From: Amphiscolops sp. MND2022
Taxonomy: Eukaryota
Length of the DNA: 64,000 nt
Direction of reading: 5' to 3'
NCBI GenBank assembly: GCA_964187785.1
Contig: OZ076409.1
Coordinates: 9,178,001-9,242,000, forward strand
The notes beneath the pieces are model-generated. The model saw only the letters and a program-made list of their open reading frames with translations. It searched no databases and had not been told where the DNA came from. Each line of letters starts with the position of its first letter. Positions within the stretch are counted from its first letter, which is position 1. Shown here piece by piece: positions 1,473 to 57,782 of the stretch. Made by a program: the position numbers and the translations under genes.

Positions 1473-2924
1473 CAGCCCAGATCCCCGGATGGATTGAAAG
1501 CGCTGCTCAAATCAGGCAAAGGAATCTCCAATCCCGCGTTACCCCATTCCCCAGGAAGTCGGCATGGAAGCCTACGGGAAAGATGACTATGTCTGGAAAT
1601 ATGTCCATCGTCCAGCATGATGAGATAAATTCCGTGTTGGGCTCGACAGAACGAGCAAGATGGGAAGAGTACTGTCTGGAGTTGGAGATTGCAAGCTTCC
1701 CTAAGTGGAAGAGAGCTTGCGAGCTCTGGAGCCAACCTGGATGGATCTCACGCCGAGTCGCACTAGCGGTAGAAGGTAGAGCAGAAATAGCGAGACAACA
1801 GGCGTTCGCGCCTACCATGCTCGCACCAACGATGGCGATGTCTTTGGATCAGCCCATCTCTCAACCGATCACCATTAACCTCCCAACCCACTACTTGAAG
1901 CCAGAACCAGTTGGCCGGTCCTCGTCGCGAACTAGCCCTCAGTCCTGGCAGCAGCAGTCCGGAGAACACACTGCCAAGTTGACTCCCAATGCAGCACTGA
2001 TGCAGCCTATTGCCGAGTTGTCGCTCCCCGAAAATCCGTCGGACTCTGAAACAGTTGCCACAGAAGTCTCTCCCCGACGTCGAGCGTCAGTGTCGACTGA
2101 TAACCCAGAACAGAACTCAGATGATGCCACTAAGGAGGGGACCCGACGCACTTCAGCTCAATAAACCCAGCCGCTAATGGGAGCGTTCGCGCTCCCTATA
2201 CCCTTGCAAACTGCCAACAAACTGTGCCTTAAAACTTCTCACCCAGAACGGTGCTACAGTACAAAGTGCAATTTTTGTTCATAGTTATGGTTATATAATT
2301 AGTGTACCATTAGTGTGGCACTGGGTGTATGGCCAATAGAGTACGCCTGCCCCAGTGGCTTGAATTACCAAGCAGAAAGAAGAAAAACTATTATTCAGAA
2401 AAACTGCTATTTTTGTTGCGCACCGTTCGCGGTGTTTTTGAGTTGTCACAATCAAAAGATGTTTTATCCCTCTTGATTGCATTTTTCTTTCTAGTCTAGT
2501 GTTCGTCATCAATTTGGTTGTTCACCGTAAGAGCCCGCAAGCTCTGAAAAAAGTTTTTAATCGCCAGAAGTGAATTGAAGACTAAAAGTGTCAAATAGTA
2601 AGAAAAAGAAATTTTAGCCGACTTTGGTCGCAAAAAAGTTTTTACGTAAATTGGCTGCCCAAACGAGTTTTAACCGGCTGGAAACTTTAGCTCTCGAGCT
2701 GGTGCTAAAACCTCGTTCGTGTTTTGTACAAATAGCTAGGCAGTAAGTCTTTTTTTTCCTCAAAAAAAAACAGCAAAAACTGACCGAAATTGTTGCCGAA
2801 AAACAAGGACTCGTCCTTGTTCCCCGATGTGTGGATGATGGTTCCCAATAGTCACCGTGATGCAGCTTCCAGACGAGCCAGACGCCGCTTGCCAGGGACG
2901 ACAAGCCAGGAGCCTGGGGAGTAA
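1473..2924 (+). mobile_element. Truncated 3' internal segment of a second, tandem copy of element A (end of ORF2, 3' UTR, PPT)
   Basis: Near-identical to 19520-20967. ORF 1583..2164 matches the C-terminus of ORF2 (19630-20211). Confidence 0.93.
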
Positions 2925-3651: not shown

Positions 3652-3666
3652 TAGAACCTCATTTTT

Positions 3667-3684
3667 TGGCGACCACAGAGGGAT
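3667..3684 (+). promoter_or_regulatory. Primer-binding site of element A (tRNA-Arg-like)
   Basis: TGGCGACCACAGAGGGAT begins with TGG and resembles, from memory, the complement of the tRNA-Arg(TCG) 3' end. It lies 15 nt from the LTR end. Confidence 0.7.
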
Positions 3685-6336
3685 CGTCTTGGGAAGCTTT
3701 CCCTAGCGGTTTTTAAAAGATCTGGCCCCATGGTGATCAGCGCCAAGCCCGCCTTCGACTCTGGACAGGAGAGAGAAGCAGAGTTTTACCTCTTTTTCGT
3801 CGTACTACGTCTTACTGGAACTGGGAGAGGCGTTGAACCAGAGAAAATGCCGAAGAAAACGTGTTTTCAGGTGCGAAAATGGTATTTTTGGGCATTTTAG
3901 AAGGAAATCGCTCTTTATGTGTGATGTGTTGTGTACCCATCAGCGGGTACCTTTTTGCAGGTGTAGAGGACCGTAGCACGTGGCCACGGGTGTCTAACAG
4001 GTTTTTTGAGCTATTTTCAGCCATTTTATGACATGCAAGAGGGTACCGGATGGATGGTTGACCATACTCCAGCGAGGCGAAGGAGGGGACGAATCTCGTG
4101 TTGCCTACTTCCTATTCCCATTTCTCGTGGAGACGTCCTAGAGGCATGGTTTTTGGTGGACAGCAAGTGCAACGACAGACGGTGCTAATGGTCCCACCCG
4201 CGTGTTTCTGTCTGGTCTAGATGTGGAGAAATAACGTGGTGAAGATGCACCCCCTGTGACCAGATGCGTCGCTCAGATGGAGTATGGTTGGCGAAAATTT
4301 TGAAAATACACCTCTTTCGATGGAGAATTGTTGGTGTAGGTCAGTGACGTTCTACTATAAATGTAACGACACCCTACGAAGTGCTTTTCTGCGAGAAAGA
4401 TAGCACTTGGAGAAAAAAAAACATTTTTGCGTTTTTTTGGTGTTTTTCTTGGTTTCGAGCACTAGTGCTCACAGAAGCCAGGAAAGTGTGGTAGAAAGCT
4501 TTGAAAAAGCAGCTGCAAGGCTCGAGAAAGCCAGCACGAGGCACGAAAGGTGAAGTTGAAGCCTTTGATTGTGATAAAAGTGCCAATTTGATGCCAAAAA
4601 ATGTGGAAAAAGTGGGAATTTGGCCAAAAAGGCACCCAAAACGTAAACGTACACGAGTATGGAAGTGCAAAACGACAGTGTACGGCACTACCCCAAGTGT
4701 AGTTGACCCTCAGGATACTAATTGCAACTTTTGTAGCGGACTCAGGCAGCCTGGGGCTGATACAGTGCGAAAAACTTGTGATTTTTGGCATTTTCGAGTA
4801 AATAAAGTGCATTGACCAAAAACACCCAGAGCGAAGCTTATTCGAAGAGAGCGGGCTCATTTTCGATTTTAGCAGCAAAAACGACGACGCATCGTGGTGA
4901 AAACCGCGTGCAAAAATTCTTTTTCAGCGTTGAGAAAAGTCGAAAAACCTTGATTTTTGGCCAGTTTCAGGAGTGCCAGAGTGCATCATTAAAACCTCTG
5001 GGGCACTCAGTGTTTTCGAGACCTGGGAGCCCGCGCGCTCTCATTTTCTGTTTTTATAATAAAAACAACGCATAGTGGTGAAAACCGCGTGCAAAAATTC
5101 CTTTTCAGTGCTGAGAAAAGTGGAAAAACGCACTGAATTTGGTCAATTTTCCACAAAACCGGACTGTGTCTGAGCTAGGGTCGGGTCATCGATTCCTGAA
5201 CCCTAGCCAAAAAGTGGTTGCAGTTTCGTAACCACCACAAAAATTAACGTTAGTGCCGAAAATTTGGCGAGCGTATCGCTCACCAAAGTCGAGAAAAGCT
5301 CTCTGACGTTTCGACTTCAGAAAAGCACAAAAAGGCCGAAAAAATCCAAAACTGCAGGACTGTCAGTGCCTTATACCTAACGGGCACAACCAATTGAGGG
5401 TTTATCCCAGTGCTACGGATAGTGGGGCAACACGTTGGTCCCATTTTGCCCGCAGTATCACTTTCTGAGGTGATCCTCTTGGTCAAATTGTGAAAAAAGT
5501 GGTCAAAAACAGTGTTTTTTCGTGTGCAACGTACATAGTAGGTCGAAACCTCAAATAAGCGCTCCCGCTTCAATTCGACCATTTTAGTGGCCTTGTAGGT
5601 GCCCACTGGCATAAACTACCAAGTTTGGTGCCAATCTGTGCGATACTTGTTGAGAAAATAGGAAAAACGTGGCACCCAAAAAGGTGTCCAAAAAGGCAGT
5701 TTTTTTCTTAACTTTTCCGAGTAACCCGGGCACCTTAGCCGACGGGTGGGGCTATATTGCAGCCCGCCATCGTAATTTGTGCTAGTTCCTACGTTGCTGC
5801 AGAGAATTTGAGCTTGCTAGCTCTTTCCAGTGGACCGCAATCTTGAACAAGACGTGAAAAACAGTGCATCTCAGTACATAGTAGTACCGCACGTCTGTAC
5901 CCTGGTGAAACGGCGTAGAAGAGGCGCAGCTCAAAACTGTGTTCAGTTTCGTAAACCTACGTGTACCTGAGATCTGCTGGTCAAATTTGGGCTTGATACA
6001 GCGCTTCCAGCACACACACGAGCCTTTTGAGTGTTGTCGTGCGAGTTTTGAAAAATCCTAAAATCCTTCGAAATTCTTCCTGTGAGTGACTGGAGACTTC
6101 TTGCCCCAAAACAGGTTGATTTTCTGGCCCAGCGTGCTTGTGGGAAAGCGCTGTGCAAATTTCAATAGCCTACGAGCCTTAGAACGTGTTTCGAAAATCT
6201 AGGACGTTGAGTACCATCAAATCTCTTAAGTGCTCACCGGGACGACCAAGGGATCAGCCTCGAATTGAAGACCCTGGTGCGTTCGGCGACCCAATTTGAG
6301 TCTTCCGAGTAATTGTGAGCGGTAACTCGATCGCTG

Positions 6337-8685
6337 TTGATAAACGCGTTGGCCACCGAACCGATGGCGGTGCCCCATATCGGTTCACAATCATGGGTCA
6401 CGATAGATGGTTCGCGTTTTTCAGACGACATGTCTGAGGAAGTCACTATCGAACAACAGCGAAAAGAGGAATTGGCCGCTATGGTTCCTCCCTCAGAGAA
6501 CTCCAGTGTTTCTGAAAATTCGCGTCGAACCGAGCAGTGGGTCGACGAAACCTGCCGCGATAGAGCCAATGAAGTGGAAGAGGGCTGGCCCAATTCGAAT
6601 GCAACCGATGAAATGGCGGCTGAGGAAGGGTGCTCGCGCGCACCCCCGGCTGGAGAGAGACAACTTGGCTCACAGCCCGACATGGAGCAGGACCTCACTT
6701 ATGTGGGAGGCATGAGTTACGCGAGACAGCGAGGATTCGGGACCACTCGAGGACCTACCCGGGTCTGTGCCTACGGGAAGCACAAGAAGGTGCGACCACC
6801 CATACTACAGGTAGGCGATCCACGTCAAGAGGTATCCCGTGTCAGGAGTATGACAGGCTCATTGGCCTCGTCGCAACGGTCTTCAGTATACAAGGCAGCG
6901 TTATTGGATGCCCAAGCCGAAACCCAACGGGCCCTAGCAGGTCTGGCCAGCACTCGTGCTGAATGCAATGAGCAACATCTTGCCATCGTGGAGAACATTA
7001 AAGTGATGCAGACGACGATGCGCGAGGGCCAGCAAGTCAGCGATCAATTGCGTACCGCGCAGAACGTGCAAAATGCTCGAGTGGACACATTGGGTCACCG
7101 GATAGGAGAGATGAATGACATGTTGATGGCTCGCGAGTTGCGCGTGGAAACGCAGATCAACAACTTAAGCAATCAGATGCACACGGTACTCAATGCCATT
7201 GATGTCATGAGGCGTGAGAGGTCACTCCCGCGGCAGCCCAGTGCAAGTGGAGGCGTGCGGAATGGAGGTCCAGTCCGTATCTCGGAGCCGACGTGCCCGA
7301 GCCAGGTAGTGAAATCGGAACTGCCGAGCGCGCTGAAGCCTAGCACTTCCAGGCCGGCAGTGCCTGCGCCCCGGAAAGATGAAGGAGTAGCCGGAAATTT
7401 GGTGATAGCCACGCCTGAGGCAGAGCGCAAGCCTGCACGAGTGCAGATGAGGGGACATCACGACTCAGCAGAGTCATCGATGCCTTCTGCAATTGAGAGC
7501 ACCACTCGAGATCAAGGCGTGGACCCGATGTCGACCATCTATCTTGAGTCTTCGGTTGAAGTCGACTTATCCAACACTAAGGCAACCCTGGGTTCTCAAA
7601 CCGAGGGAGCAACGTTCGCAACGGCCCCCATTTCGATATCAGAACCAGATTCCTTATACTTGACAGCAGACTTGTCAGCCGATCATGGACTGCCCTCCGG
7701 CACTCCCTGTGCTAGCAGCACTCGCAAAAAGGATGAAATCGCTGACCTGTCGATACAAGCCACTCTTGGTACTCATGACAAGACACGTGAGGGGGAGACT
7801 AAGACTGAAGACGAAGCCATATCCCCTGAGCAGCTGAGATTTACAACTGCCTTATGAAAGGCGATGTCAAAAGAATTAGCGCCTTTGCTTGCTGGTAGAG
7901 ACTTGGCTCAGGCGAGACCCAACGTGTATCGTGGCTCCAAAGACGGATCTATTGATGGGTGGATCCTCATCATGCAGAGACATTTGAAGAGGACGCAAAC
8001 CAAGGTCTCGGCAAACCTTGAGGGCGAAGCTCGCAATTACATCATCAATAAAGCCGAATCTGAACGTGATACCCCTGAGAAGGTGTTTGAATTGTTATCT
8101 AGCCGCTTTGGCGCGAGGGGAAATTGCATGCAAGTGCGACAAGCCTTCCAAAGCCGCGTTCAACAAGAGAAAGAAGACTGGATGCAGTACTTAGACGCTC
8201 TAGAGGGTCTTAGGAGTCAAGGATTCCCACAAGAGGCCATCACTACCAAGCGCTACGAAATCCTGCAACGCTTCATGGAAGGCGTGCGAGACCCCGCATT
8301 GAGACGGGAGCTTGCTATAGTGTATGCCTCAGAAGTCTTCCTGACCGAGCCACCCACGGTGGAATCTCTACGTTTCACCACCCGCCAATTGCAACGCAAT
8401 CGTCCTAAACCCAACCAATTCCAACCTTATGACACCAGATTAGCGATGAGGTCTAGACCTCATCCCTTTGCACCACTACCCCCAAACAAAATGGTGCTGC
8501 CACAAGGAGTGATGCCCCCCCACCTGCGAGCAATACTCCGCCAAATCAGGCAGCAGTGCAGCCCGCGGCACGCCAACCTGTTGGCGCATGCTTCAACTGT
8601 GGCCAAACTGGGCATTTTGCCCGGGACTGTCCCACCCGCGACCAGGCTCGCAAACCAGTGGCAGCCCCCGAGTCGGAGGGCGTGA
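6337..8685 (+). pseudogene. gag: gag of element A (coiled-coil N-terminus, capsid-like domain, CCHC knuckle), disrupted
   Basis: ORFs 6337..7857 and 7864..8685 are in frame across one TGA. Capsid-like YRGSKDGSIDGW and QEKEDWMQYLDAL are present. CFNCGQTGHFARDC lies in the shifted frame near 8590. Confidence 0.88.
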
Positions 8686-10296
8686 AAGTCACAGCCGAAG
8701 ACGTGGCTGACAGCGTGTTGGAGAATTATCCAGGCATTCATCAGTGTACGCACTGTGGAGTCTATGATCATGTGGATGTCCCCTGCAGTGAGCATTCTAA
8801 TGTCTCGAGGCCTAATGATGAGCTGGCCTACAATCGATGGGCTGAGGTGGAATCCGCTGGTGTCGCCGCTCAAACTGTACCCTTAGAGGATGACCGTGTG
8901 TTGATGTTGCACCCGGCAGAATCTCCAGCATTTCATGCCCCCCTGATAGTCACGTGCGGAGCAAAGCAAATCCAAACGTGCCTGGAGCCTACCACGTTCG
9001 ACCCGCAGGGACGAACGTTGATCTCGATTCATCTAATGTTGGCCGCCGAGCAAGTGCGCAGACCAACGCTAACGAAAGCAATGGTACGTCCCTGGAGAGT
9101 ACGAAACCTTGACTACATACTCTCCGGTGCCAGTCTGTGCAACGAAGGACGGCGTGGATGTGAAGTTTGAGGCCTGTGTGGTGGTAGGTGTATTCCCACC
9201 CGGCTCATGCTTGGGACCTCAAGAGCTGAAATGCTATAATATCAACCACCAAGAACCCACCGGGGAAGCGCGGATAGATGAGCGTGCGTCGCTTGTTGTC
9301 TCCTTTGTGGTGCCCCATGCGGCACCTATCCCACTGCGAGGCTTGGTGGATACTGGTTCCGGGGTATCCATACTAACCTTCTCCGCCTTCAACCGGGTAG
9401 CTGCACGGACCGGTGCGGTCCTGAAACCCTATCAAATTGATTTGTACGCTGCCAATGGGAAGACAATAAAGACTTTCGGGTTGGCTGAGCAGGTACGCTT
9501 CCAGTTGGGAGGGTATGAACTCGAAACCAATTTGGTCGTGGTAGATGACGCAATGGGCGTGGAGGACTTTCTGTTGGGTCGAAACTTCCTCCGTTCCTAC
9601 CAAGTCCTGGTAGTTCTAACCTCCATGAAGATAGTGGTGCGAGCACCAGTGAAGCCCGTCCGGCATCGTGCACACACCCAGGTAGGTGATGCTTCGCTAA
9701 CTACTCCCATTGCTCTGGACAGTGACCTGGTCCTACAGCCTTTCGAGCGTACAGTGGCAAAGGCTAAACTTGTCACCAACGCGCTTGAACCATTAATCCT
9801 CCAGACCGTGGCGCTTAACGCCTCGTTGTCTGATCCCTCATTGCAAAATACCATCTTTTTAGAGGACAGCGTGGCCACTGTCAGTGAGACAGGAACACTG
9901 TATGTGAGTCTGGTAAACCTCACCAGCAACCAGCAGCGTGTACGATGTGGTGCCCACCTGGGCACGGTAGTGCCTGTGTCTTTAGTATACCAGGCTGTGC
10001 CCCAAAAGCTGGATGCTACTGCGGAAACTGACCACAAAACTGAAGCCGACAACAGTCGAGCAAATTTTGTTTATAAAGTGTACAGTGAAATGAATCTATC
10101 CACTGCTTCTGAGTTAACTTCTTCATCTGAATTTGAGTTTTTGTCTTCGACGGATCCAAGTGAATCGGGGCTTTCGGAGCGCGAGATTCGCAAGCGCACC
10201 GATCCAGACCTATTGGCCCCGATCCCTGGGCCCGATTCTCAATTGCAAGAAGTCAAAAAACTCTGGCGCCTGCGAGTCCTTGGACAACATTCTTAA
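8556..10296 (+). pseudogene. pol: Zinc knuckle, aspartic protease and post-protease spacer of element A (frameshifted)
   Basis: LRGLVDTGSGVS catalytic motif and FLLGRNFL motif in ORF 9109..10296. Confidence 0.9.
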
Positions 10297-11760
10297 CGAG
10301 TTTGATGACCTATTCATGAAACGCAAGGCGGATATTGGCCGCTGTACCATTGCTAAACACACCATAGAGGTAGAGCCTGGGGCTGTACCGCACCGTGAAG
10401 GTGCTCGCAGAATGTCCCCCGAAAAGGCTGAACGAACCAACCAGGAGGTTCGGAGCTTATTGGCCTTAGGGATGATACAACCTTCACTGTGCCCATGGGC
10501 AAGTGGTATCGTAATGGTAAAAAAGAAAAGCGGGGAGTTACGTTTTTGCTGTGACTTCCGACCGCTGAATGAAGTAACCATTAAGGATGCCTACCCCCTG
10601 CCCCGCATCGATGAAAGCCTGGCGCGACTGGGCAATGCAAAGATCTACACTAGCATAGATCTTGCCTGGGCTTTCTGGCAAATTCCCTTGCGAAAGGCGG
10701 ACCGCCACAAGACAGCTTTTGCCTCTGAATTGGGACTCTTCGAATGGCGAATAATGCCATTTGGCTTGTGCAATGCATCAGCCACCTTCCAGCGAGCAAT
10801 AGCGCGAGCGCTACAAAAAATAGTCAATCGCAAAGGCAGCACGGTCATGGCATACATCGACGACATAGTTATAGCAACAGAGACTGTGGAAGATCACATG
10901 GCGCGTCTGCGCGAGGTTTTTGAATGCCTCCGCGAGGCTGGCTTCAAGATGCGCGTAGCCAAATGCGACTTCATGAAACCAGAAATCAAATATCTGGGAC
11001 GCGTAGTCTCCGCAGAAGGTGTCAAACCGGACCCGAAGGCTGTTGCCAAACTGCGCGATTGGGACATCACTCGCAACAAAACCGAAATGCAAAGTTTCCT
11101 GGGATTCGCTAATTATTATCGTGAATTTATCCCATGGCATGCCAAGCTGGTTGCGCCCCTCCACGCCGTTACGGGACTGAATGCCACGTTTGCATGGGGT
11201 CCTGACCAACAAAAAGCCTTCAACGAAATCAAGACAGCATTGATCGAGGCGACTGCGCTCGCGCAGCCTGATTCCGAAGGAGAGTTTGTGCTGGACACCG
11301 ATGCCAGCGCCGTTGCCATTTCCGGTATCCTACACCAGTGGCAAGGAGCTCCAGGAGAGCGACGCCTACGACCGATCATATACGGCAAGAAATTGACCAC
11401 CACCCAAGCCAAATATGGGGCACCCAAGCTGGAAATGTTTGCAGCCTACTACTTCATCCTGAAATACCACAGCTACCTTTGCCCCCGAAAGTTCACCCTG
11501 AGAGTCGACAACCAAGCCCTATCCTGGTTGAAAACCTACTCCACGGACCAAGCATTGATTGGACGTTGGATCATGACGCTGGACAGGTATCACTTTCGCG
11601 TGGAACACAGACCGCGAACTCAACACCGCAATGCTGATGGCTTGAGCAAACGAACCAACGATTATCGATGCCGAGAACAGCAGCTTGCGCAGCTGCCAGC
11701 TACTGGAGAGCGTTGGAATTTCCTCTCGGCCGAGGAATTCGACAACCTCCCCATAGCCCC
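10262..11760 (+). pseudogene. pol: Reverse transcriptase and RNase H of element A
   Basis: LRFCCDFRPLN, YPLPRID, MPFGLCNA, YIDD, FVLDTDAS and NADGLS motifs in ORF 10133..11911, with frameshifts at both ends. Confidence 0.97.
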
Positions 11761-14700
11761 TGGTTCGACCTGCAAGGTCGAATCATTCCAAATCATCCTG
11801 ACCTACCACCGCATCTGCAGAAATTGGAGCCTAAGGCTCCTGACCAAGCACTCCGTGTGCTTCGCCGTGTGCAACGAGCGAACAATCGAGAACGACAGGC
11901 GAAGGCGCTAGCCGCACCTCTACCGCCCAAGACTCCACCCGTACTGCAAAAGCACGAGGACTTCTACCCAGACTATCCTGAAGACTGGATAGACGTCACC
12001 ACTGAGGCGAGCGAGGATTACCTGCTGCCAACACATGCAGTAAATGTCCCCTCGCGCACCATCTATTCAGTGACGGGAATGAGTAACGCCATGCTACAGA
12101 ACTCTCCTGGTGGCGTGCGCGAGTCGATCATGGCCCTCAAGGACATCGACACCGAGCTCCATGAACACACTCATACCGTGCATGGGATCAAGGATTTGGT
12201 CCTAGCCCAAAACCGCGATGTCCATGTGCTAGCGCTGAAAAAGCTCGTGCAGTGTGAATCCCTAGATAACGATGTGTTTCCCGAGAACGTGCGTGAGTTC
12301 GCACGTAATTACTTCCGCCAGAAAAAGGACCTCTTGTTCATAAACAAGAATGATGTCCTTTGCGTGCAATACTCCCCCACCCAACGCCCATTGCACGAAC
12401 GTCCGTGCATGATCATAATGCCTCAACTGTACCAGCATGAAATTCTGTTCCGTGCGCACGACGCAATGGGACACCAAGGTATCTCAAAAGTGGTAGCTCG
12501 AATTCAAGAGCGCCACATTTGGCCCGGCATACGGCGCAGCGTCGGTCGATACGTCGGCCAGTGCCTCACCTGCCAACAAGTACGTGACAAGCCTGGTGAC
12601 GTACGATTTCAACTGAAAAACATTCAGAGTGGCTACTTCAACGAGTTGGTCCAGTACGACCACTTAAAAATCTGCCCCTCTGATAATAACAACACCGGCA
12701 TTTTGGTCATCATCGACCATTTCTCTAAATTTGCAGAGGCAGTCCCTTGTAGTCACCACGACTATGACGCAGTAACCACCTCACGATTGCTGCTGCAGAA
12801 TTGTTTTGCCCGCCACGCCACCCCCACTCGCATGCAATCAGACAATGCTCCAAACCTCACCGCTGAAGTCTCCAATGAGTTCCTAAAGGCAGCTCACGTC
12901 ACTAAGGTGACCTCCACTGCCGGACATCCACGAACTCAAGGCTTGGTGGAACGGCAAAACCGCACCCTCTTAACCTTGTTGCGAGTCTTTTGCCCACGTC
13001 GCATGCGCGACTGGGACCAATGCTTAGATGAAGTGATCGGTGCCTATAATTCCACCAGGCACGCCACTACAGGCTTCTCGCCCTACATGTTAACAAGGGG
13101 TGTTGAGAAAGCAATCCCCCTCACCTTTTTGTACCCTGAATTTGCGGCCAAGTCCTTTGATACGCATGAAGCATACGTGGATCATGTGTTGGCTCGCCAA
13201 CAAGAAATTCACGACTTGGTCCGGCGCAATACGCACCAAGCCCAATTACGCCAAAAATTGAAATATGATCGTGCTATCCGAGCACGAGCTTACCAGCCAG
13301 GAGAGCTTGTCTGGGTTTTTTGCCGCTACGTGCCGCAAAAAGGCTCTCCCAAACTGATGCGAGCCTGGCGTGGCCCGCACAAAATAGTACAAGTCTTTCA
13401 AGAAGGACGCGTCTATGTATTGGACACAGGCCAAAAGGTTCATTTTGAGCGCCTGAAACCTCATCATAGTGGGCCCTTTGAGCTCGCCACCGCGCAAGCG
13501 GACAGCGGCGAAATAGTGGTACTCATGGACCCTGACCCTGAACGTTCTATTGAAGTAGTTGACGACGATAAGTCCCAGTCTTCATATAAAACTGAACAAC
13601 TACTTTCAGAAGCATCTGACGTATCCTTGCCTTCGCGCAAGCACCATTGGATGGATACCCGTTTGCGCACAAAGCTACGTGCTGGAGGTTCCCGCATGCA
13701 CTACCAGCAGTTCGACTACTCGATCTCGGGCACTGACGACGAGTTGTCCGAAATCATGTTACCGGTACCTCCTGATCCCGTTGATGCTGATCGTACGGAA
13801 CCCGAACCCCAACCCCCTTCAGACCAATCAATATCACCTACCCATCGTCTACCTCAACTATTCTCAGACCATGAGCGCGCGCGCTCTCCGTCACCACAAA
13901 TATCCTCTCCCGAAAAACAGCCCTCATTATTGGGAACATCGGCCCCACTACTGACAAATCCATCGCTGACGAGTTTCCTCAATAACTATCCCATTTGGCC
14001 GGCCGCTCCGTCCCTTCCTCTGAAATCCGCCACCGACGATGACGACGCTCAGTCCAATGTCCCTACTCTTCCCACGACATTGCCCGGAGCGGGGACCGCT
14101 CCTTCTTTCAAAAGGGGGAGGGGGAGACCACCCAAAACGCGAAAAAGGCTGGTCAGAGCGAAGGCAAGAACGAGGAAGAAAGAAACAACAACAACAATGC
14201 CGTCGGAAACAGCAATACCGACCGAGGCTTCTGAGGTCCCCCGATACCAGCTGAGAAGCAGGCGGCAGCCACGCTACAAGTGCGGGACCTGTGGGCTGCG
14301 AGACTGTGTTTGCTTGCTAGCCGTCAATGAGAACCGGAGGGTTCCCACTGGAGCCCGGGGAGTCCCTCCAGAGCGGGGAGAAAATCTAGTACATCGCCTT
14401 ACGGTGAGAGCTGAAAAGACTTATTCCTCCCTGGAACGACACGGAGACCATCCTGTGGATACTATTCTAGAGAAGTTATCACTGCCTGGAGTAGCGAAAG
14501 CTCCATCTCCTCGATTCAAGGAGTGGACTAGTGACGGAAAAGGGTTAGAGTTTACCCTCGCAACGGTGATGCCCCCAGTACCCAGCAATATTGCGTTTGG
14601 ACCCTTCAACTTCGAGCGGGAGCCTGTGCAAATGGTCCGATGCATCACCGCTGATCTTCTCTGTGACAAACACGGAATTCACGTGGATCCGGGCGGAGTA

Positions 14701-15615
14701 TACAGCCCAGCGCCGCACTGGTGGTTGCTGGTCACTGCTCCACGAGTGGAGGCAATAGTGGAACCACTGCACCTGCTGTCCTGCTTGGAAGGTCTGAGGA
14801 CCCTCACTACCGCGGACTTGATACTTTGCTTCCACATCATAGACTGGTATCGTGGCAAAGTGAAATTCGCGTGGTGGTTGGAACTGATCATCACTTGTTT
14901 CACCAATTATCCTCGCATTAGATTGCTGGACGAGTGGACTCATACTTTCGAGATTCCGCTTCCCCCAAAAGCCGCTTTGAGCACCCTGGATACATGGGTC
15001 AGGGCGAGCAGCGATAATCGAGCGATGCCACGCTCGGTGTGGCAAGACCTGGCTGCAATCCAGGGGCGTACGCCCCGCGTATGCTTGCCTGCCGACAATG
15101 GGCCGGGGAGAGAGATTATCTACCCGAGAATTCTGCATTCAGCCCCAACAGAGCACCTCTCATGTGATGTGACTGATTTTCTTCAAGTAAAAGGTGATAT
15201 GGTGTTAGCGTGTCCCGCTGACCTAGAGACCAACTCAGCCGCCCTACGGTACGTGCTACGAGAATGCGGCAAGGAGAATGTATTCTCCTTACGTCCTAAG
15301 GTGGGAGAGATTCTCACCATTCCTCCCGATATCAACCCAAACCCCAATCAGAGCATTCACTTACTAATAATCAGAGCAAACCAGCGTGCGCCGCTGCTCA
15401 CCGACTACTACCTACGTTGTATGACGCACTTGATACAACGTTTGATAGAGAAAGGATCCACGAGGGTCCACCTACCTATACTGGATCCAGAGCGACCCGC
15501 CCTTTCATTGGTAAACCTGTACCATACCCTAACGAATTTGCTGGAGGGCACTGGCATTCACGTGATGCTGCATAACCGCGTGTATGTGTCCATTCTGAAC
15601 ATAGGGCCGGAGTAG
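11668..15615 (+). CDS. pol: Integrase of element A with a long C-terminal extension (AT-hook, Cys cluster, two macrodomain-like units)
   Basis: HHCC (HDAMGH...CLTC), DDE (QYDH, QSDN, VERQN) and WRGPHKI. KRGRGRPPK lies at about 14110, CGTCGLRDCVC at 14281, and macro-like segments at about 14590-14940 and 15150-15600. Confidence 0.92.
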   Translation: MPRTAACAAASYWRALEFPLGRGIRQPPHSPWFDLQGRIIPNHPDLPPHLQKLEPKAPDQALRVLRRVQRANNRERQAKALAAPLPPKTPPVLQKHEDFYPDYPEDWIDVTTEASEDYLLPTHAVNVPSRTIYSVTGMSNAMLQNSPGGVRESIMALKDIDTELHEHTHTVHGIKDLVLAQNRDVHVLALKKLVQCESLDNDVFPENVREFARNYFRQKKDLLFINKNDVLCVQYSPTQRPLHERPCMIIMPQLYQHEILFRAHDAMGHQGISKVVARIQERHIWPGIRRSVGRYVGQCLTCQQVRDKPGDVRFQLKNIQSGYFNELVQYDHLKICPSDNNNTGILVIIDHFSKFAEAVPCSHHDYDAVTTSRLLLQNCFARHATPTRMQSDNAPNLTAEVSNEFLKAAHVTKVTSTAGHPRTQGLVERQNRTLLTLLRVFCPRRMRDWDQCLDEVIGAYNSTRHATTGFSPYMLTRGVEKAIPLTFLYPEFAAKSFDTHEAYVDHVLARQQEIHDLVRRNTHQAQLRQKLKYDRAIRARAYQPGELVWVFCRYVPQKGSPKLMRAWRGPHKIVQVFQEGRVYVLDTGQKVHFERLKPHHSGPFELATAQADSGEIVVLMDPDPERSIEVVDDDKSQSSYKTEQLLSEASDVSLPSRKHHWMDTRLRTKLRAGGSRMHYQQFDYSISGTDDELSEIMLPVPPDPVDADRTEPEPQPPSDQSISPTHRLPQLFSDHERARSPSPQISSPEKQPSLLGTSAPLLTNPSLTSFLNNYPIWPAAPSLPLKSATDDDDAQSNVPTLPTTLPGAGTAPSFKRGRGRPPKTRKRLVRAKARTRKKETTTTMPSETAIPTEASEVPRYQLRSRRQPRYKCGTCGLRDCVCLLAVNENRRVPTGARGVPPERGENLVHRLTVRAEKTYSSLERHGDHPVDTILEKLSLPGVAKAPSPRFKEWTSDGKGLEFTLATVMPPVPSNIAFGPFNFEREPVQMVRCITADLLCDKHGIHVDPGGVYSPAPHWWLLVTAPRVEAIVEPLHLLSCLEGLRTLTTADLILCFHIIDWYRGKVKFAWWLELIITCFTNYPRIRLLDEWTHTFEIPLPPKAALSTLDTWVRASSDNRAMPRSVWQDLAAIQGRTPRVCLPADNGPGREIIYPRILHSAPTEHLSCDVTDFLQVKGDMVLACPADLETNSAALRYVLRECGKENVFSLRPKVGEILTIPPDINPNPNQSIHLLIIRANQRAPLLTDYYLRCMTHLIQRLIEKGSTRVHLPILDPERPALSLVNLYHTLTNLLEGTGIHVMLHNRVYVSILNIGPE

Positions 15616-15903
15616 CCCGCCCAAAACTCTTTTTTGTTGCCCCCCTCTTTGATTTACCCACCCCGATAATCGTTATGTCTGGGAGGAAGTCTTAAACCAT
15701 CCCATGAAATGATTACCTTGTAACGTAGCGTTAAATAACTCCTATCTTTATGTTCTAGTTAGTTAGTTGAACTACAATTTAAACTTGTTGCGGTTCCCCT
15801 ATGGAACCATCTTTGTACTATTGCAGCTGGATGACGAGCCTTAAGCTCTCCTCACAATGCACCTAGTAAGCCTAACGGTAATCCTTTTTAGACCTATGAT
15901 ATA

Positions 15904-18900
15904 ATGGCTTATTACCCCAACAACACGGTGCCTATTTCCACGACGGGACCTCACGCCAATAGGTCTCAAGAATTGCCTGCGCGAGCGCAGAGGACTAATC
16001 AAGTCCAATATGTAGAAGAACGACTGAGGAACGGCCTCTCACCGTTAGCGGTAGCGGGCGTGGCCGCCCTGCTCGCTCAACTAGACACAATGCAGACGCT
16101 GCCGGGTGTATCTGTGTCTCTGGTGACGGAAGTAGCCGGTTACCGTCGCACGCTAACCTGCCAAAACAATGCGTGGGATGGCCACGATTTGACGCACCAG
16201 TTCTTGGGTGAACGTTCTACCACAATGCTCGGGCCCAGCCAGGGCACGAGATTCGAGCAAGAAGCCTCACTGTGAATGGTGCCTGCCAGCGTAGCAACAA
16301 TGCCACCTCCTCAGATGGTCGCATTGCCCCCACCAGCACCAAAACCAGTACCAATGACGCCAACCTATTCCGGTTCACCTGCCTTTGGAACCTCATATCG
16401 AGCACCACACATGGTACTGCAAACCACTACTAGTGCACCAGTCTCTGATCGGGAGCCCTCGGGGTCCCGGTTGCCACCCATACAAAACCTAGAGCTGACG
16501 GGAAGGAGTACCAGCGAACAGGCCGTAATTGTGGCCTTGCAAGCAGTGGCCAACTATCCCAACTCCTCCGATTTTGTTCGTGCCGTAGAGCAGAGAATCC
16601 CTGGACTAGCCACTTATCTGCAAGCTGCTGTTCGGCCCGCGGGCTGTGACCCTCCTGCTCCCTTAGTCGAGACGGCATCTATGGATGTGGAAATTGCCGC
16701 TGGACCAAGCAACAGCGCAAGCGCTGCTACTGGCGCACGAGAAGAAGCGGGGAGAAAGCGACTAACTGAAGAAACTGTCTCAGTTACCCCAGCTAGCTCA
16801 GTAACCGAGAGCCCGACTAGTCGTCCCCCTCCCGACAAGCGCGCTGATGTACCTCGACCCCAGCTGAAGAGTGTAGTCATCCCTAGGCCTCCGTACCGGG
16901 TGGGTCATCTAGGCCGAAGCGCACCTGAAATGTCTTTAGCGGACGCGATCGAGCAGTATGGAGATCCGGATGCAGGCTCGGAAGTGAGCTCTGTGCCCTC
17001 GGGCACGAATCCAATAGATGTGTCCTTGGAGGTACCTGAGATGTGAGAGGAGAATTGCCCTCCATCTTTCCTCCCTCCCTCTGATGACGTATCCGGTTCA
17101 GTAGTCACCAATGACAGTAAGCGCATTTGGATGGCGGCTGAGCATCTCTACCCCAGTCAATGCGCTATAAAGAAAAGGACCCCTCCAACTGAAACGGAGC
17201 AAAAGGAGATTAACCGAACCACGATACCGGCGCAGGTCACACGTTCGCTGCGCCCCCGGGACGCAGATATGTCGGAGCAGGCCTGGGAACAGCGTGCTCG
17301 AGAGCAGCTGCCTACGACAACTAACGATTACATGGCACCCTTGCAACATAATATCACCGAGCATTTCCCCGCACGGTATGTGTTGCGAGAAGGTGAGACA
17401 TGGGAAGCGAACGCCCGCTACGCTCGCAATTTGAGATCTCTGAAACCACTATTGAAAGCAGCTCTGCAGCGCGCGCGCTACTGCATGGCGGTTGATTCTA
17501 CTTGCCGGAGTGACCTCCCTATTGACAATTTGATGCCTGACGTGCTGGTGCTGACTATGCCCCTGTCTCGCTTTGCTGAGGTCGCCGAGATGGTTGGAGC
17601 CATATACGATCCAAACTTAAGAGGATCACAGAAGGAAGCAACCCCACAGCGCGTGATCTTTGCCAATCTTCTGGATCACATGGCTTGCGAAGGGTTGCTG
17701 CGTGACCTGGACGCCATAATGTCCGATGTCCGACGACTTGGAGACATTGCAGCCCTGGTAAATGAGGTAGTCGGTGCAATGGAACGTGCCGCAGGGATCC
17801 TTCGGGGTCGTCTGGGAGCGCTCGCGCTCTTTGTATCCCCACCAGGATTTATGTATTGGCCACGAAGTCTGCAGCAGTTTGTCTACATTCTGCTGGAGGT
17901 ATGCAAGGCGCGCAGAGTCGAATTCGCCATCTGTGCACCAAACTTGCGTGTGGACCGAGAGGACCTGTGCCCAGATACCTTATCGTATCCAGCCTTCTTT
18001 GCCGCCGTATCTAGAGCACTCGTGGCTATAGAACGCTCGGGAAATGCCCAGCTAACCATTGACGACGCTATCCTCTATGATTATGGAATGCGGATGGGCA
18101 GATTGGCCTCTGACGTTGACGGCAACCGCATCGCCCGAGAGTCTAATGTAACCAAACGAGAGGCTGTTCGTCGGTACAACTGGCTAGTGCAAAAAGACAA
18201 AGAAATCCCAGTGCGCGCAGAGTTAGCCGAACTGACAAAACAAATTGGTGCATGGCCTGCAGCGCGCACCGTTGAGAGAACAATCCCTCAGATCCACTTC
18301 GCCTCAGGAATCGTGCCCGTGAAGCTGCCTGTAGGACTGCGATGCATCGTGGCAATGGAAGCAACAAATCTGAAGGCAGAGGTCGACGCCGCAGCCACCA
18401 TTTACGCCTATTGGTACCAGACTAGGTTTGCCACCAGAACTCTGGCAGAAGTAGCTCGAGAGCTCAATTGTCCATTGGAAGCCTTCTGTACCAGTCTTGG
18501 TCTGGGATGGAACCTTGAAGTGCTAACTTCCGAGTTTTCGCTGACCCCTACGCAAACGGACAAGCTGCTAGAAACAATTGGAGAGGCAACTGTCGGAGAA
18601 ATACTAGCGCTCGCGCTAGCGATGGGTCCAACAAAGTTTGTAGCCGGACCACTGGCCTTGTTGGTCGACATCGTGATTGCCTGCGACCTCACCGTGTTCT
18701 ACAGCTACTTGGTCCTGGCACAAGGACAACTACGCAGCCTGACCCGCTGGGGACACTTGATGACCTCCAAAGACCAACAAGACTATTCCGCTCAACTGGA
18801 GCGCATGCGTGCGTCGATCCAGCACTGGCTATATTCCACCCTGGTGTTCACCTCTGGTGTATTCGTGGGCGTGGACCAATCCCAACCACTACACAACTCA

Positions 18901-20211
18901 GACCAGCAGATCCCACGGGAAACGGCAGGGTTCCCCTTGCCGCAGCAGATTGCTGATCTCACCCTGGCTGAGGTAGAGGATTTCGTGGCAGCCATGGCTC
19001 CTGTCTTGGCCCCTATCTTTGGCGCAGTGGGCGTGTGCCGATACCCTACAAAACCATTAGCAACAGCAGTCCAAGTGCACATGGTCTCCTTTAGCACCTA
19101 TCTGCGAGGCCGTCCCTCACTGGCATATCCAAGGGTAATACATGCCGTGCTGAGTGGTGAAGTGCCGCATGGGTACACGACCATAAAATCCGAAAGAGAG
19201 TTGGAGGAGAACCTGATGGGTTTGTTGCGCGCGCGCACCAGGAAAGCATGTCCTCTGCCCCGAGAGCATGGGCCAGTGAACTGGTACTCCGCACCTCTCA
19301 ATTTGGAACGAGTCCCCTTTAGGTTCCCCTGGAGTCAAGAGTTCATAAGAAAGGCGATTCGCGCCAGCACTAGTGCTGGTCCACCTGTGGACCCTTTATA
19401 CAGCTTTAAATGCATCGCCTTCCCGAATCGCTATTGGAAGGAGCCGTTAGGTTGGCCTAGGGCGAAACCCGTTGGACGCGCCCCAGAGGTTTTCAACCGT
19501 CAAATCCAACACTTGAAGTCAGCCCAGATCCCAGGATGGATTGAAGGCGCTGCTCAGATCAGGCAAAGGAATCTCCAATCCCGCGTTACCCCATTCCCCA
19601 GGAAGTCGGCATGGAAACCTACGGGAAAGATGACCATGTCTGGAGATATATCCATCGTCCAGCATGATGAGATCAATTCCGTGTTGGGCTCAACAGAACG
19701 AGCAAGATGGGAAGAATACTGTCTGGAGTTGGAGATTGCTAGCTTCCCTAAATGGAAGAGAGCTTGCTAGCTCTGGAGCCAACCTGGGTGGATCTCACGC
19801 CGAGTCGCACTAGCAGGAGAAGGTAGAGCAGAGATAGCGAGACAACAGGCGTTCGCGCCTACCATGCTCGCACCAACGATGGCGATGTCTTTGGATCGGC
19901 CCATCTCTCAACCGATCACCATTAAACTTCCAACCCACAACTTGGAGCCAGAACCAGTTGGCCTGTCTTCATCGCGAACGAGCCCTCAGACCTCGCAGCA
20001 GCAGTCCGGAGAGCACGCTCCTGAGTTGACTCCCAATGCAGCACTAGTGCAGCCCATTGCCGAGTTGTCGCTTCCCGAAAGTCTGTCGGACTCCGAAACA
20101 GTTGCCACAGAAGTCTCTCCCCGACGTCGAGCGTCAGTATCGACTGATAACCCAGAACAGAACCAAGATGATGCCACTAAAGAGCGGACCCGACGCAGTT
20201 CGGCTCAATAA
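15904..20211 (+). pseudogene. Accessory ORF2 of element A (about 1,435 codons, three in-frame stops) with an SGNH/GDSL-like domain
   Basis: ORFs 15904, 16276, 17131 and 19864 share one frame and the gaps are open. The TAG at 19768 is GAG in the upstream copy (reads CELW). Confidence 0.85.
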
Positions 20212-20949
20212 ACCCAGCCGCTAATGGGAGCGTTCGCGCTCCCTATACCCTCACAAACTGCCAACAAACAGTGCCTTAAATCATCCAGAACGGTGCTACA
20301 GTACAAAGTGCAATTTTTGTTCATAGTTATGGTTATATAATTAGTGTACCATTAGTGTTGCACTGGGTGTACGGCCAATAGAGTACGCCTGCACCAGTGG
20401 CTTGAATTACCAAGCAGAAAGAAAAGAAAAACTATTATCAAGAAAAACTATTATTTTTATTGCGCACCGTTCGCGGTGTTTTTGAGTTGTCACAATCAAA
20501 AGAAGTCTTATCCCTCTTGATTGCGTTTCTTTCTAGTCTAGTGTTTTTCATCAATTTGGTTGTTCACCGTAAGAGCCCGCAAGCTCTAAAAAAGTTTTTA
20601 ACCGCCTGAAGTGAATTGAAGACTATAAGTCTCAAATGGTAAGGAAAAGCAATTTTAGCCGACTTTGGTCGCAAAAAATTTTTTTTACGTAAGTTGACTG
20701 CCCAAACGAGTTTTAACCGGCTGAAAACTGTAGCTCTCGAGCTGGTGCTAAAACCTCGTTCGTGTTTTGTACAAATAGCTAGGCAGTAAGTTCTTTTTTT
20801 TTTTCGTAAAAAAACCGCAAAGCTGACCAAAATTGTTGCCGAAAAACAAGGACTCGTCCTTGTTCCCCGATGTGTGGATGATGGTTCCCAGCAGTCACTG
20901 TGATGCAGTTCCCAGACGAGCCAGACGCCGCTTGCCAGGGACGACAAGC

Positions 20950-20967
20950 CAGGAGCCTGGGGAGTGA
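20950..20967 (+). promoter_or_regulatory. Polypurine tract of element A
   Basis: CAGGAGCCTGGGGAGTGA lies directly before the TGTAACG of the 3' LTR. Confidence 0.7.
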
Positions 20968-21696
20968 TGTAACGGCAAGCTCTGGTACAGCAATATCAAC
21001 CGACATGTTTAGAAATTTTGTCAAAAATTCGTTCAAATTTGACGTGGCACTCAAACATGCTCAAGACGAAGTACCTGCCAGAAAAAGCACCCCAGAAAAG
21101 CAGAAATCGCCGCTCGTTACAAACAAGGACCGGAGACGACTAAAAAGACGTCCCCAACGCATACAGAACACGGTATTGTGTCAATCTCTAGGAGATATCC
21201 GTTACTACAGTAAAGGAAACCAGTGTTCCAGTTGTTCGCCTGAGTATCCCTGCGGTATCCTGTGTGGCAACTAGCGCTAGCGCTGGGAAGCTGAGGTCAA
21301 TTTTCATCAAATGACTCTGAACTCTTGATTTCTTGTTGTATTTTTCGATGTGGTAAATTAATATGCTCGAGAGCTGTTGTTTAACATCTGTTTATCCAAT
21401 TTGGCGATTTTATCAGATTCTCCAATATCACGGTTCAACCTTCATCGATTTTCAGCCCAATTTTTAAAGGCTAGTTGAGCAGTGGTCTTGAGTCTTACAA
21501 GATGCCTGTTACTTTTAGCAGTTACAGACTAGGACCAGGCCAGAGAGTATCCTACAAGACGATTCCCCCACCTTGGGACTGGCTCCTCCGGAGGGAAAAT
21601 GAGCTAGAGCCGCGGAGATCTAGGTCCCAGATTATATTCGCTGTTCTAGTTCCTCCACTCTACTTTGCGGTTCAAGCGCCTGCGCTTATCGTTACA
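20968..21696 (+). repeat. 3' LTR of element A
   Basis: 729 bp TGTAACG...CGTTACA, homologous to 2925-3651. Confidence 0.95.
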
Positions 21697-25317: not shown

Positions 25318-25457
25318 GTGATCATTCGTTCTGAATACTTAACGTGTTGATGATATCCTTATTTTTTGCCAATCTTTGCAATAATTTCTATTTTTGACTG
25401 GTAAAAAACCAGTGATCAAATAATTGCTTGGATTATTTTTTTCAGACCAATTAATTG

Positions 25458-25881
25458 TATAGAAAACCTATATAAGGAAATATTTAAAAAAAGATATAAC
25501 GTCATACGTTCAGACAGATTTACGATGAGAAACAAAATATTGTTATCAGACATATCAAAATAGGGTTGTCGGGGTTCGACAATCTTAGGTAAACCGACTG
25601 TCGGGGTTCGATAGTAAAAACCACTGTAAAGAAGCAACTGTCGAGTGTCGACGGATCGCATTGGGAAAATATAAAGACATTCGGAAAATGGCTGGCTTCG
25701 CCAAACTATGGCAAAGATAAAGGGTTTATAAGCGATATGAGAAGTTGACCATTCGCGTTTTGCCTTTTGTCAATTTCATTGAGCTATATTGACTGAATAC
25801 TATCACAAATTGAAATAAACACGTCTTCAAAACATTAACCTAACTCTTTTTTATCTACGTCTTCATAAAGAGGACGTTACA
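25458..25881 (+). repeat. 5' LTR of B2
   Basis: TATAGAAAACC...GGACGTTACA, homologous to 77-430/1443-1473 and to 30449-30886. Confidence 0.9.
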
Positions 25882-26114: not shown

Positions 26115-28723
26115 AACAAGTTTTTTTCATTTGAAGAAAAAAAACAGCTGAACGTTTCAACTTCGAAAAGCACGTAAACATTAACAGTGTTCATTTGACA
26201 AAAGAGATCAACTGGAGGCGGTTAACAGTCTCTGCCAAAAGTACGATAAAATGTTTTCAAAAACGCGAATGATTTAGGAATTAACAATCAAACGGAACAT
26301 CAAATCAAGCTCAAACCAAACGCTCAGTCGTTTCGTAGAGCGAATGAAAACATGAGTTTTGACAAACGCAAAACCTTGAAAAAAATTGTCGAAGGATTAC
26401 CGGAAGCTGATCTAATAACACCAACCCATTCGGAGGGACAGAACCTAGTATTTTGGTTCCAAGGAAAGCCGGAACGTACTGACTTGTCGTACACTACCGT
26501 GGACTGAACAAACAAATAGAGAAGACATGTTAGCCGCTGCCTAGAATCAACGACATGATTGATTTCCTTGAAGGGAACATGTTTTTCTCGAGCATTGATT
26601 TGACATCGGGATACTTTCAAATGGCTCTGGAAGAGAACAGTCAGAATCTTACCGCCTTCTTCACGCCTTTGGGTCTCTACAAATGGAAGCGGTTACACAG
26701 AGGCTTTTCAAATCTTGATGGAGCTAATTTTCAGCGGTTTATCATACAAAGTAGCAATTGTTCACGTTGATGATATTATCGTGTTTAGTAAAAACATTGA
26801 AGAGCACCTTGAAGAAAGAATGGAGCATATTATCGAAAGACTGGAGAAACGTGGATAGAAAATCAAAGGATCAAAGTGCAACTTTTTTCAAAAAAAAAGA
26901 ATATGTTTTTTGGGCCACGTCATCTCGGATAAAGGAGTGAGAGTGAACCAAGAGAAAGTCAAAGCAGTAGAGAAAATGAAAGCACCCACCAGTTTAAAGG
27001 AAGTGAGGGCAGTTTTGGGATTAGTACGGTTTTAAAAGAAGTTTATTCCGGGTTTCGGAAAAACTTCAGAACCTCTAAATAACCTTTTCAAAAAAGAGAA
27101 AAAGTTCGTCGGGACCAACGAATGTGAAAGCGCTCTGAAAAAATTGAAATACAAACTATTGAAAGAACTTATCGTGGGTATCCCAACAGCCGACATGATT
27201 TTACGCTAACTACAGACGCCTCTTTGACAGACTTGATGCCATTTTGACACAGAAACGCAACGGGGTGGATGGAGAAATTGCATATGCCACAAAACACTCA
27301 ATTGGAGCCAAAGAAAATACTCAGCAACAAAAAGGAAATTTCTAGCGGTTGTGAAATTCACAAATCATTTCCAAACGTATCAGTTGGGGCGCGAATTTGT
27401 TATTGTAACCGACCATCTGGCTTTGTTTGGTTGTACAGTTTCAAGGAACCTTAAGGTATGATTTCAAGGTGGTTATAGAAATTGGGACAGTTTGACTTCG
27501 AAATAAAACACAACGCAGGAAAAGCCATCCCACTTGCGGACCGTTTATGAAGAGTTTAATCTAAAGGAGAGGAAACAAGAGCTTTTATCGCTGCATTTAC
27601 ATTTGAAGAAAACGTTCAAGAACAACCGAAGACCCCTTGGATGTTACTCCAGGGACAGCAGAAATAATCACAGGAAGCAGCAAGAGGATAAAAATCTGGC
27701 GAAAGTCTTCGCGTGGCTCAAAGATAAACAGCGCCCTGACCGACGGAGCATGTCCTTGGCGTCTAAAGGATTACGGAAGTATTGGGTCGATTTCAAGAAT
27801 TTTGCTGTCATGGATGGAATTATATATCGAAAAAAAGCAGGAAATGTCAGGAACTGCTGTGCTGCAACTAGCAGTTGCTGCGTCTCAGGTTCCACACATT
27901 TTACCATAACTGGACGAGTCTCTGTGTACGAGCCACCTGGGAATCGAGAAATCACAGAGCGCAAGAACAATTATTTAGCCAGGCATGAAAATAGACGTCA
28001 GAGAATGGGATAACAGTTGTAGTGAGTGTCTTAAAAAGAAAGAAAAACCACAATAACATCGCGACAGTCTTACTACATGGCAGGCCAGTCACCCGTTTTG
28101 GCAAGTATCAATGGACGTCATGGGACCTCTTCATGACTCTCAAGGTTGTACATACATTCGCCTAAATGGGGATCAATTCAGAAAGTGATATGAGGCCGTG
28201 GGAATGCCAAACCAAGAAGCCAAAACAGTTGCCGAAGCTCTAGTTGAAAATGGATCACACGTTTTGGGTGCCCTGTCAATCTTCATAGTGATACACCTAA
28301 TGATTCCATATTTAAAACAAAGCGTGAGCTACAGGAGGCATATCATTGGATCAGGATTCAGATGGAAGTAGAACAAACTAGACAGAAGTTCTACTACGAC
28401 TACCGCGCATAATGTACCGAGAAGGACAGCGAGTTCTTGTCTTTTTCTCAACAGTAAAAATGGGAGAAACAAAAAGTTGAGAGCGTTCAACAAAGGACCT
28501 TACGAAAATGTTGAAATTGATAACAGATAGAATCAGATTCAAACAATATAGGTGTAGGGAGCAAACATCTGTCAGAATTAACGAAACTAGGAGACGAAGA
28601 GAGTTGGAGGAAAAATCATTCGTCGAGGAAGTTGGAGATGACTTCATTGAAATTGAAGTCGAGCAAACAAACGAACCGGATAGGGAGGATCATGGACAAC
28701 TTTTCAGAATGAAAACCAGGTGA
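26115..28723 (+). pseudogene. pol: Heavily decayed pol (RT, RNase H, integrase) of B2
   Basis: FSSIDLTSGYFQ, VDDIIVFS (about 26767), FTLTTDAS (about 27200), CSEC, FWQVSMDVMGPL (about 28095), LHSD and KGPYE. Confidence 0.9.
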
Positions 28724-29349
28724 CAGCTGATCCACACAATGACGTTATAACCGTTGAAGAAAAGCCTAACGAGCGACAGTGTAGCGCGTCTTCAGAGAAG
28801 GACGGAAGTAGCAGTAGAGATAACTTCTCGACCGAAACAATTAAACCGAAAAATCAAAACAAAAAATTAAAAACAATCCACCACCTGGCGAAAAAGCAAC
28901 TGTCGCAAAAAGGGTCACCCAGGAGCGCCAAGAGCAGCCGAGGAACATTTTCGAGCTTGAGTTCGACAACAGAGTGCAGCGAGAAAAAATACGGAAAAAT
29001 ACGAGAAAAAAATACGATCCTAGCGCGCCAAAAGATACTGGCGAAGGGTGAGAGAAACAAAGCCAGAGTAACGGAAAAACTTATTAGGAAGCTGAAACAC
29101 AAAAACCTCATCCAACGTCCGTTCACACCCTATGAGATTCTTTCCGCAAAAGATGACGCAGACGTGAATGATATCAAACGTGATTACAAAAAATTAGCTG
29201 ACTTAACTCATCCTGACGCTGATGGATGTGATGAACACTTCAAAACAATCCACAGTGCCTATCTTATTTTGAGTAACCAGAATGCAAGAAACATATACGA
29301 CATATTCAGGTTAGAGGGGGCAGAAAAAAGAGTTAACCCGGAAGGCTAA
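28720..29349 (+). CDS. J-domain (DnaJ/Hsp40-like) protein segment, probably the frameshifted Pol C-terminus
   Basis: TPYEILSAKDDADVNDIKRDYKKLADLTHPDADGCDEHFKTIHSAYLILSNQNARNIYD fits the J-domain pattern, with HPD at 29209-29217. Confidence 0.88.
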   Translation: MTADPHNDVITVEEKPNERQCSASSEKDGSSSRDNFSTETIKPKNQNKKLKTIHHLAKKQLSQKGSPRSAKSSRGTFSSLSSTTECSEKKYGKIREKNTILARQKILAKGERNKARVTEKLIRKLKHKNLIQRPFTPYEILSAKDDADVNDIKRDYKKLADLTHPDADGCDEHFKTIHSAYLILSNQNARNIYDIFRLEGAEKRVNPEG

Positions 29350-30448: not shown

Positions 30449-30886
30449 TATAGAAAACCTATATAACGAATTTTGGAAAAATTAAAAATGATTAAAGGTG
30501 AAACGTTCAGACCGATTTACGTTGAGAAACAAAATACTGTTAACAGACATATCGGAAAAAGGGTTGTCGCGATTCGACAGTCTTAGGTTAACCGACTGTC
30601 GGGGTTCGACTGTAAGATTTCCATAGTAAAAAAAGCAACTGTCGGGTTTCGACGGATGGCATTGAGAAAATATGAAAACTTTCACAAAACGGCTGGCTTC
30701 GCCAAAGTATGACAAAGATAAAGGGTATATAGGCGATACGAGAAGTTGGCCATTTGCGTTTTGTCTTTTGTCAAGTTCCTTGAGCTATAAATCACATTGA
30801 ATACTTTCTCAAAATAAAAGAAACACATCTTCAAAACATTAAAATAAATCTTTTCATATATACGTTTTCATATAGAGGACGTTACA
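30449..30886 (+). repeat. 3' LTR of B2
   Basis: TATAGAAAACC...GAGGACGTTACA, visibly more diverged from the 5' LTRs than those are from each other. Confidence 0.9.
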
Positions 30887-51680: not shown

Positions 51681-52015
51681 ATGATATCGTAACTGGAGAC
51701 TTTGAAGAAACTGTTTCTTTGTACTTTGTTTTTATTGTTCTTGTTGGAATTAGTCATTGTTCTTCTCATATAGTTAGGTTCCGCGTGTCGGTTCCTTTGG
51801 TAGAAGAGAAAAAAAAATCATGCTCTGATATTATGGAGCGGAGAAAAAATTTGAGGCAGCTCCGTGGTCCACTGGGTTATTCAATTTAGTATTTAGCCTC
51901 TGTATTGTTTTCATCCGAGTCGTAGAGTACAGTAGAGTGAGTGAAAGCCATTGTGATTTGAAGAGATTTGAAGTCAGGTCATAGGATTGTGGTCCAGGCC
52001 AGTGTCTGGGCCTGA

Positions 52016-57780: not shown

Positions 57781-57782
57781 AT

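Follow-up and report, generated by a model that had tools for sequence, protein, structure and literature searches.

An apparently non-catalytic SGNH-fold protein encoded by a third open reading frame in a very large Gypsy element of Amphiscolops sp.

A stretch of 64,000 nucleotides from Amphiscolops sp. MND2022 (contig OZ076409.1, positions 9,178,001 to 9,242,000; hereafter the window) contains a Gypsy element of 18.8 kb that carries, between pol and the 3′ long terminal repeat (LTR), an additional open reading frame (ORF), here called ORF3. All features of this element lie on the + strand. The LTRs, located by self-comparison and inspection, have TG...CA ends and measure 727 bp (5′ LTR, 2925–3651) and 729 bp (3′ LTR, 20968–21696), with 702 of 727 aligned bases identical (96.6%). 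A putative TGG motif resembling a primer-binding site, recognized from sequence only (3667–3684), lies 15 nt past the 5′ LTR in a 2.7-kb leader with no long ORF in the ORF list (3652–6363), and a purine-rich tract (20947–20967) directly precedes the 3′ LTR. The gag gene (6364–9170), in three pieces owing to a stop and a frameshift, encodes a capsid-like PNMA match (PF14893, E 0.003) and a CCHC knuckle (PF00098, E 4e-9). The pol gene (9073–15615) encodes, by Pfam assignment, protease, reverse transcriptase, RNase H and integrase, followed by a long C-terminal extension; it is broken by frameshifts, and its relative P0348 is uninterrupted at 2,175 aa. Paired LTRs, primer-binding-site-like motif, polypurine tract, CCHC-containing Gag and pol domain order are those of Ty3/Gypsy elements, and the named integrase relatives are animal sequences, about 30% identical. 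In the present copy none of the three genes, gag, pol and ORF3, is functional any longer.

ORF3 comprises 1,435 codons in frame +1, from an ATG at 15904, 288 nt after the pol stop (15615), to a TAA at 20211. Premature stops at codons 124 (16273), 381 (17044) and 1289 (19768) divide the frame into ORFs 15892–16275, 16276–17046, 17047–19770 and 19771–20211, which an initial annotation, made without database searches, had read as one broken frame. Homologue searches (90 proteins; the best 150 of 472 cluster representatives; the best 120 of 332) yielded nearly exclusively ENA sequences, and 331 relatives were used for the counts given here. Thirteen of the 331 are uninterrupted across all three break sites (1,426–1,493 aa), which confirms the single frame and shows that the stops are not conserved in all copies; the third stop (a TAG) is also open in a truncated tandem copy upstream, as had been noted. 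The suggested origin of the two TGAs (16273 and 17044) by CGA-to-TGA decay did not hold: among close relatives (at least 88% identity) the fit is 0 of 13 and 0 of 16. More distant relatives give a mixed picture of this CpG route. Judged against these relatives, the stops are private decay of the present copy.

The relatives of ORF3 fall into families at about 95, 80, 50, 40 and 27% identity, and the integrase relatives into similar tiers (92–98, 82–84, 63–65, 45 and 33–39%), which suggests that the two were inherited together. Between the two copies of ORF3 in the window, 228 codons could be compared, giving 0.167 synonymous substitutions per site (dS) and 0.042 nonsynonymous substitutions per site (dN), a ratio of 0.25 (Fisher p 7e-6) that falls to 0.09 for the first 109 codons. 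These very large Gypsy elements form a clade of which ORF3 is a genuine accessory gene, and the evidence supports a single ancestral ORF in the env position.

The central part of the protein (aa ∼473–717, 17320..18054) is predicted to adopt the three-layer α/β SGNH fold, as found by fold comparison of the modelled structure. The SGNH-like motifs listed in the initial annotation sit where it placed them, with the block I Ser at 17497, block II at 17557–17574, block III at 17659–17679 and block V at 17959–17976. In block I (xDST), Asp is present in 140 of 146 relatives and the nucleophile Ser in 139 of 145. The Gly slot of block II, registered by motif, is occupied by Leu in 141 of 157 and by Gly in only 3, the distant P0275 among them. 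In block V (x-D/T-L-R-P), the slot before Pro, which is His in enzymes, is Arg in 148 of 159 relatives; the acid slot three residues before the Arg is variable, without a conserved acid, so that no Asp-x-x-His is found. The noted absence of the catalytic His therefore holds family-wide, while the present copy itself departs from the family at the block V Arg. In a set of 42 rows filtered to below 70% identity, the counts for the active-site blocks are 21/22, 19/22 and 18/22.

The Asn in VIFANLLD, the motif that the initial annotation placed in block III, is unlikely to be the oxyanion Asn of SGNH enzymes: by the six-residue block given in Table 2 of PMC10792757, this conserved Asn (147/153) most likely falls in the Gly slot, and the oxyanion slot, again by motif register, holds a hydrophobic residue or Asp. 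Block III also contains a conserved Asp (151/153), followed immediately by a His (145/153). We infer from these patterns that the domain is a pseudo-esterase, in which the Ser and its loop are retained and the His is now Arg. The retained loop and the replacement by Arg suggest that the old active site most likely serves as an anion-binding pocket or docking surface and not as a hydrolase, in line with the non-catalytic SGNH accessory protein originally proposed. A rewired hydrolase or acyltransferase, with the Ser as nucleophile, the His after block III as base and the Arg binding substrate, would make use of the conserved residues of blocks I and III, but appears quite unlikely, given that the block II Gly is lost, that P0275 and P0220, the most distant relatives, have another residue in place of the proposed base, and that every enzyme in Table 2 of PMC10792757 keeps a His base.

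Structure modelling and conservation show the following predicted architecture around the SGNH domain. A small conserved N-terminal domain (aa ∼25–112, 15976..16239) has no Pfam match; in the 40% family its identity is 41%, compared with 29% for the linker. The Pro/Ser/Thr-rich, apparently disordered linker (16276..17103) contains two basic motifs, RKR (16753–16761) and SPxS[RK]PP[PT]DK[RK] (16810–16842), both kept in the ∼95, 80, 50 and 40% families and absent from the 27% relative P0275. Downstream of the SGNH domain lie a confidently modelled all-helical domain (aa ∼801–981, 18304..18846), for which structural comparison gave no match, and a conserved, mildly basic C-terminal region (aa ∼986–1288, 18859..19767; net charge +4 to +9), which is 40% identical in the 40% family and whose model is partly of low confidence. 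The ORF ends in a hydrophilic low-complexity tail of ∼145 aa (19771..20211) in which a sequence scan found no membrane anchor. The description of the ∼580 aa after the SGNH domain as helical is right in part and does not extend throughout.

The location between pol and the 3′ LTR and the large size are what would be expected of a divergent envelope or fusion protein. This identity is nevertheless very improbable, in agreement with the first impression that ORF3 is not env-like: the best-modelled domain is SGNH, and furin-like sites number 0–2 and are not common to the relatives. A Kyte-Doolittle scan of six proteins, made in place of a dedicated predictor, gave no hydrophobic peak at either end that could represent a signal peptide or C-terminal transmembrane anchor. 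Pfam, PDB and BFVD likewise yielded no match to a viral fusion protein, an absence that does not amount to exclusion.

SGNH-containing third ORFs in LTR elements are already published, a precedent that the initial annotation overlooked. The bdelloid rotifer Vesta elements carry a GDSL/SGNH ORF3 of ∼1.3 kb with intact catalytic residues, and catalytically dead SGNH derivatives occur in Athena-L (Rodriguez et al. 2017, PMC5408684). The Vesta ORF3 resembles the present one in that it follows pol as a separate ORF of a Gypsy-type element, with an SGNH domain and without a transmembrane or coiled-coil anchor. It differs in its size, in its intact S/G/N/H residues and in belonging to an element with a dUTPase. 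The ORF3 studied here is 4.3 kb long, has four additional regions, has lost the His and Gly, and accompanies a Pol with a macro domain; no dUTPase family was found in a Pfam scan of the window pieces or of the full-length relatives P0348, P0406 and P0408. Relative to the published SGNH ORF3s, the protein thus appears new in being much larger, multi-domain and apparently non-catalytic, in a giant element with a macro-like Pol end. The literature covered, which did not extend to subscription journals or Repbase, described neither a large SGNH ORF3 lacking the His nor a combination of macro and SGNH domains in Gypsy elements; the clade may already be on record in the sources left aside.

The SGNH fold is also found in ORF1p of the CR1, L2 and RTEX long interspersed nuclear elements (LINEs), where it is encoded by ORF1 of non-LTR elements. 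A Ser/Thr in the strand that follows block III of ORF3 may match S228 of the LINE esterase, by motif only. The ORF1p esterase of ZfL2-1 (PDB 4C1B) has an active triad, the marker H191, an isoelectric point (pI) of 10.8 and a coiled coil (PMC3905857). ORF3 has neither an intact triad nor the His of the HVGTND marker, nor the high pI and coiled coil, and 4C1B is outside the top 50 fold matches of its SGNH domain. The best match is the brain platelet-activating factor (PAF) acetylhydrolase subunit (PDB 1BWP), an active enzyme at 13% identity. A bacterial GDSL lipase (3p94) has a Z score within 1 of this match, and the donor can therefore not be named.

These comparisons bear on the possibility that ORF3 is a membrane or lipid binder, whose dead pocket would accommodate a head group or acyl chain, tying particles to membranes or vesicles and possibly allowing env-free cell-to-cell transfer. 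The env position, the PAF acetylhydrolase match and hydrophobic stretches at aa ∼903–937 and ∼1024–1045 are consistent with this, as is the report that mutating the catalytic residues of the ZfL2-1 esterase does not abolish its binding to anionic lipids and liposomes (PMC3905857). However, the binding described there is charge-driven at pI 10.8, whereas the SGNH domain here is near neutral, with pI 6.2–9.2 in four relatives and net charges of −1 to +4. Block III lacks the marker His of the LINE proteins, the model places the stretch at aa ∼903–937 inside the packed helical domain, and there is no sign of secretion or fusion. A membrane role is accordingly possible but rather unlikely.

Two other proteins offer analogies. 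Drosophila Oskar OSK (PDB 5A4A) likewise has an SGNH fold without the catalytic triad and, by motif, a hydrophobic residue in the block III oxyanion slot; it differs in having Asp for Ser, in keeping the block II Gly and in being a host gene product with a LOTUS domain, and no sequence similarity between ORF3 and Oskar was found. CERV of Caenorhabditis elegans Cer1 is a Gypsy accessory protein that combines a dead α/β enzyme fold with domains of unknown fold, but it is spliced from the gag region, has 517 aa and a GTPase-like fold (PMC10309623), and serves as an analogy only.

By analogy to Oskar OSK and CERV, we tentatively propose, with a probability of about 0.42, that ORF3 is an intracellular scaffold for the RNA or particle of the element itself. 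In this mechanism, a soluble multi-domain protein would be translated in the cell from a subgenomic, probably spliced RNA, and could enter the nucleus by means of the basic linker motifs. Bound to the 18-kb RNA or to the particle, with the dead SGNH pocket holding an anion, it may help in export, protection or delivery to an assembly site. The preference is slight, and draws on the two analogies, the basic motifs and an SGNH domain without strong positive charge. Several observations weigh against it. The charge of the SGNH domain favours RNA no more than membranes; the linker motifs are 24 residues apart and missing from P0275, and a classical bipartite signal has a shorter spacing. The conserved Ser and the His near block III would be expected of a rewired enzyme too. 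The block registers, moreover, come from motif comparison with Table 2 of PMC10792757 and not from superposed coordinates.

A weak lead to expression of ORF3 is a possible branch point with a pyrimidine tract and an AG (15872..15891), the AG lying 12 nt 5′ of the ORF3 start; the pattern, written post hoc, has this sole match in the window, with 1.09 expected by chance. A two-codon upstream ORF (15896–15906, +) has a stop that overlaps the ORF3 start codon.

The end of Pol carries a degenerate TARG1/OARD1-like macro domain (15160..15570). An iterated profile joins it to P0406 (Pfam Macro at the cut-off) and P0386 (TARG1 4j5q, E 3.6e-24), with a best E of 1.1 for a reversed-sequence control. The domain occupies the same position in relatives down to ∼33% integrase identity and is well preserved in P0386. 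About 200 aa N-terminal to it are also conserved, and a disordered stretch after the integrase (in the Pol region 11638–15615, +) contains a KRGRGRPPK motif, which we take to be AT-hook-like.

Viral macro domains oppose ADP-ribosylation, and the capture of two enzyme folds by a single element, in a clade that reaches hundreds of copies per family (clusters of 491–1,094 members), would suit a counter-defence function in which ORF3, perhaps with the macro domain, binds a restriction or silencing factor of the host or serves as its decoy. We consider this unlikely, since purifying selection is strong where rapid change would be expected, ORF3 diverges about as slowly as the integrase across the tiers, and we know of no host partner. 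Unlikely too, if slightly less so, is a broader proposal: that these 'complex' giant Gypsy elements form a clade not described before, with two captured, inactivated enzyme folds (the TARG1-like macro domain of Pol and the SGNH pseudo-enzyme of ORF3) and a new-fold helical domain, in which ORF3 would be an independently evolved Oskar-like RNA scaffold that routes the genome to the germ line or past host silencing.

SGNH domains have been captured several times by unrelated retroelements, and the lipid or membrane idea rests on one LINE protein. In ORF3 the fold is under strong selection while the catalytic His is lost down to 27% identity, which argues that catalysis is not what is selected. 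The family provides a natural sequence set with which to distinguish RNA, lipid and host protein as ligands of the pocket. Few third ORFs other than env are on record, and ORF3 joins them as a large accessory gene whose helical domain has no structural match.

The truncated upstream copy (1473..2924, +), comprising the 3′ end of ORF3 (open frame 1448–2164), the 3′ untranslated region (UTR) and the polypurine tract, is 94% identical to 19520–20967. It shares the left LTR with the full element in a tandem arrangement, and an identical purine-rich tract precedes both LTRs. Between the tandem copies (1473–3651 and 19520–21696), the dS of 0.17 in ORF3 exceeds the difference in the 3′ UTR (42 mismatches in 751) or LTR (25 in 727), which would make the copies distinct sub-lineages or recombinants, and mean that the non-coding end is conserved or homogenised. 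The upstream copy ends abruptly at 1473, where a dispersed repeat abuts and truncates it. Dispersed and inverted repeats in the window (9–430, 25390–25881 and 30449–30886; 899–1215 with 38409–38555) are probably non-autonomous DNA elements.

A second Gypsy element (45198–60823, −) has 1,908-bp LTRs that are 98.6% identical, a 5-bp target duplication and a gag that starts inside the LTR. Antisense to it, between the integrase and its 3′ LTR, lies an uninterrupted ORF of 792 codons (49302–51680, +) without a Pfam or PDB match, with a zinc-finger-like N-terminal Cys/His pattern and, by eye only, a resemblance to hAT transposases. An AT-skewed region rich in repeats contains an ORF (28684–29349, +) that encodes a DnaJ domain and a long basic N-terminal part. 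Part of an amino-acid permease gene (60963–61631, −) adjoins the second element.
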